A stretch of DNA of 33,610 nt from a virus (Duplodnaviria > Caudoviricetes): IMG/VR virus record IMGVR_UViG_3300033067_001492, positions 1 through 33,610 of that record. One strand, 5' to 3'. Below are positions 755 to 2,455 of the stretch, in pieces. The position numbers and the translations under genes were made by a program. A model generated the notes under the pieces. The model was not told where the DNA came from, made no database searches, and worked only from the letters and a program-made list of their open reading frames with translations. Every line of letters starts with the position of its first letter. Position 1 is the first letter of the stretch.

Positions 755-942
755 CCCCCGCCGAGCTCGCCGCCGACGCGCAGAGCCGCGACGCCACAAC
801 GCCGCTGTTCGGCATCGGCTGGCACCGCCACGGCCGCCGCTGGGTCTGGGGCGCCCGCTACGGCGACGGCTGCGCAGCCTGCGACGCCGCGTGGCGCAGC
901 GCTGTGCCGGGACCGACGGCGGGAAGGTGGCGGAGGCCGTGA
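751..942 (+). CDS. small hypothetical protein
   Basis: GTGA coupling at both ends; CAAC motif. Confidence 0.5.
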
Positions 943-1178
943 TGCGCATCGGCTCGCTGTTCAGCGGGATCGGCGGCCTCGACATTGGCCTCGAGTGGGC
1001 CGGCGTCGGCCGCACGGTGTGGCAGGTGGAGCGCGATCCGTTCTGTCGTGCGGTGCTGGCGAGGCACTGGCCGGATGCTGAAAGGTTTGAGGATGTGAGG
1101 CTGGTCCACTCCGAGGAGTGGGCTGAAGAGGAGCTAAGGAGGTTCTTCGATGCCGGGGAAGCCGAAGAAGATGACTGA
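942..1178 (+). CDS. C5-cytosine DNA methyltransferase, N-terminal fragment (motifs I-III)
   Basis: [21 protein letters not shown] (motif I FxGxG), QVERDPFC (II), FEDV (III); then an unrelated acidic tail and stop at 1178. Confidence 0.9.
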
Positions 1179-1629
1179 GGAACAGTTGTGCGAGGCGATT
1201 GAGTTGTACCATCGCGGAGCCAGTCTGGCCGACTGCGCGCACATCTACGGCATCACGCGCCAGGCGATGTGGAGCAGGATGAAGGGTCGCATACAGATGC
1301 GGCCCCAATTGCGATACGGCAGCTCAAACCACTTCTTTCGCCGCGGTCCCGTGGCGGATGCGTACGTCCACAACCTGACCGAGCAGGCCATCGAGGATGG
1401 CGTGATTCGGCGCAGCGCTACGTGCGAAACGTGCGGGGCATCCGGCCACATGTCTGACGGGCGCACCATCGTCCAGGCGCATCACTGCGACTACAACAAG
1501 CCGCTGGAGGTTGTGTGGCTCTGCCAGAGGTGCCATCACGAGTGGCACAAATCCAACATTGCAATCGCGAGGGAGGAGGTGCCCAGGGAACTCCCCGCAG
1601 TCGACGTGATTTGCGGAGGGTTCCCGTAA
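1150..1629 (+). CDS. HTH + HNH-type (putative homing) endonuclease whose C-terminus carries the first half of MTase motif IV
   Basis: SD TAAGGAGG at 1135-1142, 7 nt before ATG. HTH-like [23 protein letters not shown]...[24 protein letters not shown]; ends [12 protein letters not shown]. Confidence 0.85.
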
Positions 1630-2438
1630 TGCGTGCCAAGACATCTCCTACGCCGGCAAGGGGGCCGGCCTCGACGGCGCCCGTTCAGGACTCTGGTTCG
1701 AGTTCGCTCGAATCATTCGCGAGATGGGACCCCGCTTCGTTGTCGTGGAGAACGTCTCAGCGCTGCTTACTCGCGGGCTTGACACCGTTCTCGGAACGCT
1801 GGCCTCGCTCGGGTACGATGCGGAGTGGTGCTGCGTTCGTGCGTCCGACGTGGGCGCTCGGCACCGCCGGGACAGAGTCTTCCTCATCGGCTACTTGGCC
1901 GACGCCGGATGCCTCGGTCGCGAACGACTCCGAGACGCTGGAGTCGTGGGAGGCGCGCCGGGCCCGAGTGAAGGCCACCGGGATCAACGGCAACGGGATG
2001 GGCGCGCCCCTGGCGATAGCGGTCAGGCTGTGGCCGACGACGACGACGAGCGATGCGCGTGCCAGCGGCGCAGCGGGCTACTCGACGGAGAGTGGGCGGC
2101 ATGCGGGCACGACGCTGACCGATGCGGTCAACGGGATGTGGGCGACGCCTGTTGCTCGCGACGAGAAGGGGCCGACGGGTGCGGGCCGGACGTCACGGCG
2201 CAAGTCGCCGCAGGTGCCGGACCAAGCGGGCTGCAAGGGGCGCCAGTCGCTCAACCCCGCGTGGGTCGAGCAACTCATGGGCTTTCCGCCCGGTTGGACG
2301 TTGCCGGGCCCGGACAGCCTCAGCACGCCTGGGAAGCCCCACGCATCGCGTCGACGGCGCCGCACCGAAGCAAGAGACTCCGCGCCCTTGGCAACGCCGT
2401 CGTGCCGCAAGTCGCTGAAGTCGTCGGCCGGCGGATGA
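1629..2438 (+). CDS. overprinted methyltransferase beta-type subunit (variable/target-recognition region + motif IX)
   Basis: ATG in the TAATG overlap with GGAGG at 1615-1619; repeats WPTP/WPTT/WATP; LNPAWVEQLMGFPPGWT matches motif IX, which the alpha frame lacks. Confidence 0.8.
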   Translation: MRAKTSPTPARGPASTAPVQDSGSSSLESFARWDPASLSWRTSQRCLLAGLTPFSERWPRSGTMRSGAAFVRPTWALGTAGTESSSSATWPTPDASVANDSETLESWEARRARVKATGINGNGMGAPLAIAVRLWPTTTTSDARASGAAGYSTESGRHAGTTLTDAVNGMWATPVARDEKGPTGAGRTSRRKSPQVPDQAGCKGRQSLNPAWVEQLMGFPPGWTLPGPDSLSTPGKPHASRRRRRTEARDSAPLATPSCRKSLKSSAGG

Positions 2439-2455
2439 TGGAGCTCGCTCGCTGA
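1634..2455 (+). CDS. C5-cytosine methyltransferase alpha-type segment (catalytic CQD, motifs V-VIII and X); no start codon upstream of the Cys
   Basis: From 1634 reads CQDISYAGKGAGLDGARSGLWFEF...VVVENV...HRRDRVFLIG...RLRALGNAVVPQVAE. In-frame TGA at 1607; first ATG is at 1724, downstream of the catalytic Cys. Confidence 0.85.
   Translation, partial: CQDISYAGKGAGLDGARSGLWFEFARIIREMGPRFVVVENVSALLTRGLDTVLGTLASLGYDAEWCCVRASDVGARHRRDRVFLIGYLADAGCLGRERLRDAGVVGGAPGPSEGHRDQRQRDGRAPGDSGQAVADDDDERCACQRRSGLLDGEWAACGHDADRCGQRDVGDACCSRREGADGCGPDVTAQVAAGAGPSGLQGAPVAQPRVGRATHGLSARLDVAGPGQPQHAWEAPRIASTAPHRSKRLRALGNAVVPQVAEVVGRRMMELAR

Follow-up and report, generated by a model that had tools for sequence, protein, structure and literature searches.

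How can a DNA C5 methyltransferase be made from a locus in which its conserved motifs lie in four pieces, spread over all three forward frames? The locus sits in a 33,610-nt window (the whole stretch of DNA analysed here, 69% GC) that belongs to a tailed phage and encodes a replication initiator, a portal, terminase subunits, and a major head protein. The four-piece layout had been described in a first-pass annotation and was confirmed as written by translation, Pfam, and PHROGs. All pieces are on the forward strand. Motifs I–III translate from 942–1178 (frame 3), and the next ORF (1150–1629, frame 1) encodes 159 residues with a helix-turn-helix (HTH) and a Zn/HNH-type endonuclease, a nuclease by homology to Pfam and PHROGs entries and to its relatives. 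This HNH ORF ends in methyltransferase letters, with VDVICGGFP as its last nine codons (1600–1626). The C-terminal alpha frame (1634–2455, frame 2) starts at the catalytic Cys and covers motifs VI, VIII, and X, with VVENV at 1742–1756, HRRDR at 1862–1876, and LGNAV at 2387–2401. Finally, an overprinted ORF at 1629–2438 (frame 3) carries LNPAWVEQLMGFPPGW, the motif IX stretch, at 2250–2297. The motif numbering is the one that we take to apply to these pieces. Pfam PF00145 matches piece 1 (profile positions 1–58) and piece 3 (71–164), and PHROGs labels piece 2 an endonuclease and piece 4 a DNA methyltransferase. Our answer, to which we give a probability of roughly 70% on the strength of sequence comparisons, is that the gene holds a probably mobile HNH cassette and a 7-nt stop-containing gap that ribosomes likely skip, so that a functional C5 methyltransferase of three chains would be made from the locus, along with free nuclease.

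Three frame steps of different kinds

Assembly error does not account for the breaks. Among contigs aligned to the window, taken from the runs of four studies, one (X3, 1050–1647, 16 substitutions) crosses the first break gap-free, as does a second (X8, 1067–1710, 26 substitutions), which also crosses the second break with more than 31 nt on each side. A further contig set (X5) covers 1007–1364 and 1566–2448 with 52 substitutions and no gap. Across these three sources there are 10–52 substitutions per piece, and the only indels listed are in-frame 3-nt changes at 2034–2035. Contig X1 (1033–1663) shows no differences and may come from the source sample of the window. Raw reads lacking the disruptions had been named beforehand as grounds for rejecting the proposal; instead, contigs from other studies keep the breaks with no frame changes, which rules out assembly error as their cause. 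In four RNA-labelled runs, two of them probably DNA, no listed piece spans the gap with 31 nt on both sides.

The first-pass annotation had noted that the frame moves by +1 at each break. All three steps are present, but they had been treated as alike and are in fact three different things. The first is an HNH cassette placed after motif III, with the N part fused in frame in most relatives and split off in this lineage. The second is a family-wide, stop-containing micro-insert between the codons for the catalytic Pro and Cys, with bypass-type signals. The third is an ordinary beta frame of the M.EcoHK31I type that is present also in insert-free relatives.

This last step can be dealt with briefly. 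The beta chain (1629–2438, 269 aa) is overprinted in the +1 frame and begins at an ATG inside the gap (1629–1631), and its motif IX lies in an alternative frame to the alpha motifs, as in M.EcoHK31I. A motif IX regex also matched in the +1 frame of 44 of 73 insert-free controls. Among the listed substitutions (40 of 123, some of which may stem from insert-free alleles in the same runs), 10 of 12 at alpha motifs were synonymous in alpha, all 11 in 2021–2273 were synonymous in beta, and all four in the N chain were synonymous. Good Shine–Dalgarno (SD) sequences had been claimed for the HNH and beta pieces, and both can be read directly: an SD-like TAAGGAGGT at 1135–1143, 6 nt 5′ of the HNH ATG, and GGAGG at 1615–1619, 9 nt 5′ of the beta ATG. 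A centroid fold places a small predicted hairpin (1128–1148) over the HNH SD, a weak feature with a whole-region z of −0.56.

A protein search with the HNH ORF returned 74 matches, many of them single chains of 210–260 aa that run from motifs I–III through HTH and HNH to a final D-hydrophobic-GGFP and then a stop. Nearly all fetched loci have an in-frame fusion of the N piece, through linkers of many lengths. A separate N chain of 72–78 aa with a conserved tail marks the window's lineage, which also has the full SD for HNH, and such a piece recurs where the HNH is only about 75% identical (P0076, P0141, and P0147 with P0002 and P0152, paired by the equal lengths of their longest contigs). In the window, the chain (942–1178) has 78 residues, made up of motifs I–III and an acidic tail that appears to derive from the cassette. 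In run X1, loose ends of contigs depart from the window after 1096 and return to it at 1634 with a motif IV reading …GGC GGC TTC CCC, and the same ends occur in RNA-labelled runs. These ends sit on separate contigs and probably represent one empty allele, with a mobile cassette that would span 1097–1633 and comprise the tail, the HNH gene, the DVICGGFP segment, and the gap. Because this probably empty allele lies beside the window's lineage, the flanks may be recently acquired, and intactness there proves less than the family data do. HNH and methyltransferase identities are weakly correlated (rho 0.35, 82 alleles), and insert-bearing and insert-free rows interleave in a rapidly built 175-row tree in which few forks are resolved; both results fit cassette mobility. 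The Cys/His pattern of the HNH is intact in 78 of 82 in-gene relatives.

Several relatives vary this arrangement. Short proteins that join motifs I–III straight to the cassette tail and GGFP-stop (P0090, P0097, P0101, P0113), and a locus with a half-deleted HNH (L139), are apparent cases of in-frame nuclease loss with the stop kept. In 4 of 19 alleles checked, a different, free-standing HTH + HNH_3 endonuclease gene lies directly upstream of the insert-bearing methylase (L321:666–1067, L302, L309, L342). It shares its N-terminal HTH with the window's HNH family, and this group has a Bacteroidota-like look. L130 and L282 carry the same HNH family within the gene while the methyltransferase frame runs through it in another frame, and their motif IV (AGTPCQ and AGVPCQ) has no insert, a layout like that of the ShiLan phage domain discussed below. 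One cassette (L176) lies in the isolate genome of Muriventricola aceti, a possible native test system. A search of cultured phages with a fused relative gave no match at E 1e-15, two annotated records have the Pro-Cys junction intact, and the predicted fold of a fused relative (pLDDT 84, pTM 0.43) gave no Foldseek match at E 0.001 or better. In the whole window (1–33,610), AGGCCT is absent (27 expected) and CTGCAG, CCGG, CTAG, CATG, and GATC are under-represented, a depletion that pointed to no target site. We also considered, and rejected, a further hop where the N chain stops (GAC TGA G GAA), as the codons mismatch, no clear 5′ stem is found, and relatives stop elsewhere. A +1 shift at AGG AGG (1137–1142) that fuses the N chain to the HNH is possible, and those codons are explained by the HNH SD.

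A micro-insert between the catalytic proline and cysteine codons

Motif IV of the window reads Phe-Pro(CCG)-TAA-T-GCG-Cys. The HNH ORF stops directly after its motif IV segment, and the Cys frame opens after a further 7 nt and has no start codon of its own upstream of the Cys. The parts that concern us are the predicted take-off codon CCG (1624–1626), the coding gap TAA-T-GCG (1627–1633), and the predicted landing triplet GCG (1631–1633). The insert is identical in L092 and reads TGATGCG in L232 and L236. One contig each of X16 and X17 has an extra T behind 1631. Motif I of the window is intact and without an insert.

The breakpoint recurs widely outside this genome. An HNH-alignment search gave 192 loci, from which 103 non-duplicate loci with an HNH frame ending in G-x-P were picked by eye, plus the window; 102 of the G-x-P loci were parsed, 99 of them distinct, and no stop was demanded in this HNH-selected set. 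In all 99, the Pro and Cys codons are separated by an insert (of 6 nt in 50, 7 nt in 29, and 8–15 nt in 20), and it begins with a stop in 93 (TGA 45, TAA 39, TAG 15). Every readable allele whose HNH frame runs into G-x-P has the insert, namely the 102 parsed loci and L129, L259, L178, L237, and L117, and it is absent at this site from all 80 closest relatives found with the Cys-frame piece. Scanning for GG-F-P, a TRR triplet, and CQ, with everything else left free, gave 82 and 7 loci, many of which are otherwise complete genes with no HNH inside, some with the same HNH free-standing upstream. In the pooled set, 136 of 218 distinct parsed alleles carry an insert of 6–15 nt exactly between Pro and Cys, with the 6-nt class (as in CCA TAA CCA, take-off codon included) accounting for 90; the pooled stop counts hold partly by construction, since the scans demanded TRR. 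In a search made blind to the insert, all 18 alleles at 63–100% identity (many near-identical) had it, and none of 11 readable alleles at 35–48% did. Because insert lengths fall in all three frames, plain readthrough is excluded, and an alternative genetic code is ruled out by the occurrence of all three stops together with frame-breaking lengths.

A sense codon follows Pro in 8 of the 136 alleles (CAA 6, CGA 1, ATA 1), which counts against the hop, and three further alleles are stop-less or out-of-frame variants starting with CAA, ATA, or AGA. Such inserts, starting with CAA or CGA before a stop or having no stop at all, are found in L113, L139, L178 (from a Synergistaceae genome), L228, L257, L273, and L002, and the CAA/CGA-led ones do not fit simple pausing at Pro-stop.

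Both gene halves are under purifying selection, HNH-free genes included. In three hand-picked groups of insert alleles, in which many pairs are saturated, median dN/dS was 0.05–0.19 for the N part and 0.16–0.27 for motifs IV–VIII, and pN/pS was 0.05–0.26 in seven alleles sharing TAACTA. Motif X was found in the Cys frame of 51 of 60 and 34 of 37 insert alleles (85 of 97 together) versus 71 of 73 controls, and the lower yield suggests that some copies decay or use other layouts. Some insert alleles, such as L286, have a decayed look, and in L004 and L116 the Cys frame closes short of motif X, close to a G run, possibly at a further frame change.

Upstream of the gap, nucleotides 1586–1625 are predicted to fold into a long stem-loop (−25.4 kcal/mol, z −2.6) whose 3′ arm is formed by the Cys-Gly-Gly-Phe-Pro codons and ends inside the take-off codon, two bases of which are in the stem. 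In the window, this hairpin hides the beta SD. Relative to synonymous recoding, the median z was −2.2 in 95 alleles with HNH in the gene, −3.6 in the 41 others, and +0.5 in 82 controls, and the median folding energy was −23 to −25 kcal/mol in insert alleles versus −11 in controls of equal GC. GGFP is the only peptide stretch common to all alleles. The Gly wobble base pairs as C:G in 36 or G:C in 32 alleles, and pairing is Watson–Crick in 73 of 95 versus 38 after shuffling, in a test anchored only on the partner of TTCC (an anchor present in 95 of 109 alleles); controls, too, are paired to a degree at this anchored position (20 of 44 versus 11). For 25 alleles chosen for equal register, RNAalifold returned a 7-pair basal stem with one pair changed on both sides in six sequences. 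A tree-aware count of stem covariation ran about 5 to 0 in the expected direction, with an underpowered median sign-test p of 0.06. Two other structures were rejected: a short GGN-GG-TTC-CC-N mini-hairpin, for which covariation was absent (p 0.17), and a 3′ barrier stem, which was weak or absent (p 0.03–0.12).

The landing triplet was left free in all searches. Its middle base is C in 103 and T in 33 of the 136 alleles, its first base is a pyrimidine in 124 and a purine in 12, and a purine first base is never combined with a U middle base in 79 distinct strings. In the same 79 strings, the third-base class covaries with that of the take-off codon (R-R 52, Y-Y 10, mixed 17; Fisher p 0.0007), and a tree-aware sign test on wobble class went in the right direction with a median p of 0.06, again underpowered. 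About half of the alleles land on CCN; 66 of 136 do not. The window's GCG, mismatched to its CCG take-off codon at position 1, is among the weaker landing triplets, and its G is also the last base of the beta start codon, an arrangement that recurs in L092, L232, and L236. Earlier pyrimidine–pyrimidine triplets are scarce (6 of 41 versus 19 expected, one of the 41 being a misparse), and a stop follows the take-off codon (TAA in the window); both features are shared with MobA/gene 60. The take-off codon is CCC in none of the 136 alleles versus 38 of 82 controls, where CCC is the commonest Pro codon. UUC_CCC_UGA is described as a +1 shift site and a C-terminal Pro as a site of tmRNA tagging in a published study (PMC3082878), and on these grounds Pro-stop is a plausible pause at which CCC would leak into the wrong frame. 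L181, in the HNH-selected set, is the single case with a CCC take-off codon. SD pairing 5′ of the take-off codon is not enriched versus controls (p 0.44), and a mechanism with an SD spring was rejected for this reason. Taken at face value, these sequence patterns give the insert the signature of peptidyl-tRNA re-pairing.

A second site has the same design. Eight fetched loci carry a 4–5-nt insert in motif I after F-S/A-G-I, and five of the eight have the motif IV insert as well. A motif I scan gave 99 loci, of which 31 passed a methyltransferase filter and 28 were distinct; a few real ones (L437, L495) were dropped by the filter. The insert begins with a stop in 25 of the 28 alleles, the third base of the landing triplet is C or U in all 28, as tRNA-Ile(GAU) would need, and a 5′ hairpin is present (median z −3.0 versus mononucleotide shuffles). 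The commonest landing triplet is ACC, a middle-base mismatch to Ile ATT. The micro-gap, written F-S/A-G-I, 5 nt, G-G, is seen in L002, L022, L052, L207, L217, L232, L282, and L293 and in L407–L499, and the hairpin takes in the start codon of the gene in several alleles. With an Ile codon in place of Pro, the motif I site thus looks like the motif IV site and supports the reading as a ribosomal hop.

A predicted ribosomal hop and its rivals

How might the hop work? Ribosomes would pause at Pro-stop, and most would terminate, which would free the HNH protein and leave the overlapping TAATG usable as the beta start. In some ribosomes, the 1586–1625 hairpin, Pro codon included, would refold and push the peptidyl-tRNA-Pro forward. 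The tRNA would then re-pair at the first acceptable triplet (GCG in the window), and decoding would restart at TGC to give an exact Phe-Pro-Cys-Gln junction. The resulting HNH–alpha fusion of 432 aa would assemble with the separately made N chain and the EcoHK31I-type beta chain. By analogy to MobA, the HNH may cut insert-free alleles near the Pro-Cys codons, with the gap giving immunity to its own allele. On balance, we favor extending this scheme to the family as a compact, portable recoding device, in which a hairpin of 35–45 nt with the take-off codon at its end, then a stop, and 5–15 nt on a triplet of loose match would let homing endonucleases break their targets in essential codons with no splicing. 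Such a device would act in two motifs of phage C5 methyltransferases, with two tRNAs (Pro and Ile) and next to either of two HNH types; it would be the first natural stop-hop of wide occurrence in bacteria and phages.

Could the enzyme be restored at the same site by another route, through excision or skipping at the RNA level or through a hairpin-driven slide that decodes the last triplet as an extra residue? The loose landing matches (66 of 136 not CCN, and ACC commonest at the Ile site) would suit such a route, as would the hairpin being the most constant feature. We nevertheless find it unlikely, since third-base classes track the take-off tRNA at both sites, which neither excision nor four-fold codon decoding would need, and since the purine-first, U-middle combination never occurs (0 of 79 distinct strings). 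Nor does any Rfam family reach its gathering score in 900–2600. A length of 5–7 nt is also too short for known self-splicing introns. Larger splicing elements were rejected as well. For a group I or II intron there are three weak, unrelated Rfam matches, all below gathering score, and splicing to 1633 would remove DVICGGFP too; for an intein, Pfam finds no Hint domain and the frame ends in a stop. A hidden HNH of the ShiLan type was rejected because the methylase frame is closed through the HNH in the window, that layout being found only in L130 and L282.

The gap could also be an immunity scar in a dead methyltransferase gene, with flanks that look intact through repeated landing in fresh alleles and a hairpin that merely couples beta translation. 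The probably empty allele that co-occurs with the window's lineage, the weak correlation of HNH and methyltransferase identities (rho 0.35), the hidden beta SD, the few decayed insert alleles, and the dispensability of some phage methylases (PMC11855218) all speak for this account. It is quite unlikely, as clades with one insert have diverged under purifying selection on both sides and as inserts persist in 41 alleles with no HNH inside the gene. The GGFP within the cassette is also kept, with its own codon usage; the N-to-HNH linkers, of many lengths, are all in frame; the methyltransferase frame of L130 is unbroken through the HNH gene; and controls have beta frames but not the hairpin. It is highly improbable that the Cys piece is instead a separate chain made by re-initiation just after the stop, in an enzyme of four chains split in its catalytic loop. 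CTG or TTG does stand directly before the Cys codon in 17 of 136 alleles, and the Gly-Gly codons are SD-like, but ATG, GTG, or TTG occurs in the Cys frame before the Cys in only 10 of 136 alleles (25 if CTG is counted) and not in the window, and the commonest triplets before Cys are Pro codons. The first-pass annotation had left a choice between a multi-chain or recoded enzyme and a very recently disabled one; the former is supported and can be made precise in the form of the ribosomal hop, and the latter is disfavored.

Relation to known systems and significance

The known bacterial cases of programmed bypassing are T4 gene 60, its homologues, and a few terminase genes of Streptomyces phages. 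The element described here would work as MobA/gene 60 does, but its host gene, gap size, and stem geometry place it outside that class. Compared with the T4 mobA/gene 39-60 system (10.1101/2022.08.31.505936), the likenesses are extensive: an HNH gene splits the host ORF and tails are added, the gap lies at an invariant active-site codon just downstream, a stop or rare codon follows the take-off codon, take-off and landing codons tend to match in wobble class with no premature landing triplets, and the gap is retained where the nuclease is absent or replaced. Here too, an HTH + HNH protein that is a homing-type endonuclease by homology is encoded adjacent in cis. There are also differences. The target is a C5 methyltransferase here and a topoisomerase in T4 gene 39-60, and the gap measures 6–15 nt here versus about 50 nt in gene 60/Topo2L. 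The take-off codon here is a Pro codon and ends the 3′ arm of a 5′ hairpin that is strongly conserved, whereas that of gene 60 lies in the 5′ arm of a take-off stem and its 5′ stem is poorly conserved. Landing is also looser here than in T4 gene 60, there is no evident mini-SD, and the HNH usually forms an in-frame fusion.

Other systems share single features. The Hau3 terminase gene of a Streptomyces phage likewise has a short gap after a slow A-site codon, and a UAA variant of its 10-nt gap was bypassed in Escherichia coli as seen by mass spectrometry; it differs in its rare UUA trigger, a proposed regulatory role, and its restriction to few genes, and the available text mentions no homing nuclease (PMC10732093). 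Synthetic stop-hops resemble the 6-nt class, in which exactly 9 nt are used for one amino acid, and a 2016 review states that no natural in-frame stop-hop was known (PMC5009743). M.EcoHK31I has a motif IX beta chain in another frame inside the alpha gene, but its alpha (motifs I–VIII and X) is a single ORF, while alpha is interrupted twice here and beta starts inside the gap (PMC2836561). The ShiLan domain is a homing HNH inside a phage DNA methylase gene with no splicing, but its methylase frame stays open, free of stops, across an HNH that lies out of frame; the paper's text contains neither the word bypass nor the word frameshift (PMC11855218). Aeh1 nrdA/mobE offers a free-standing split with a conserved added tail, comparable to the N chain of the window, and has no recoding site (10.1101/2022.08.31.505936). 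The precedents proposed in the first-pass annotation (M.EcoHK31I, M.AquI, and Aeh1 nrdA/mobE) fit the HNH cassette and the beta frame; T4 mobA/gene 60, the closest for the micro-insert, had not been named. A full-text search of mainly open-access literature listed no description of this element.

We are likely dealing with a miniature and, to judge from the alleles compared, apparently widespread counterpart of the T4 gene 60 bypass. The natural alleles at hand number more than 130, and their minimal signal of hairpin, stop, and landing triplet is small enough for a 60-nt reporter cassette; they make it directly testable whether mRNA refolding behind the ribosome is by itself sufficient for take-off and which P-site mismatches are tolerated. 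The element suggests a further route for homing nucleases into conserved genes, beside introns, inteins, and gene splitting. It also implies that some phage methylases that look truncated or like pseudogenes are active, which bears on inventories of anti-restriction functions.
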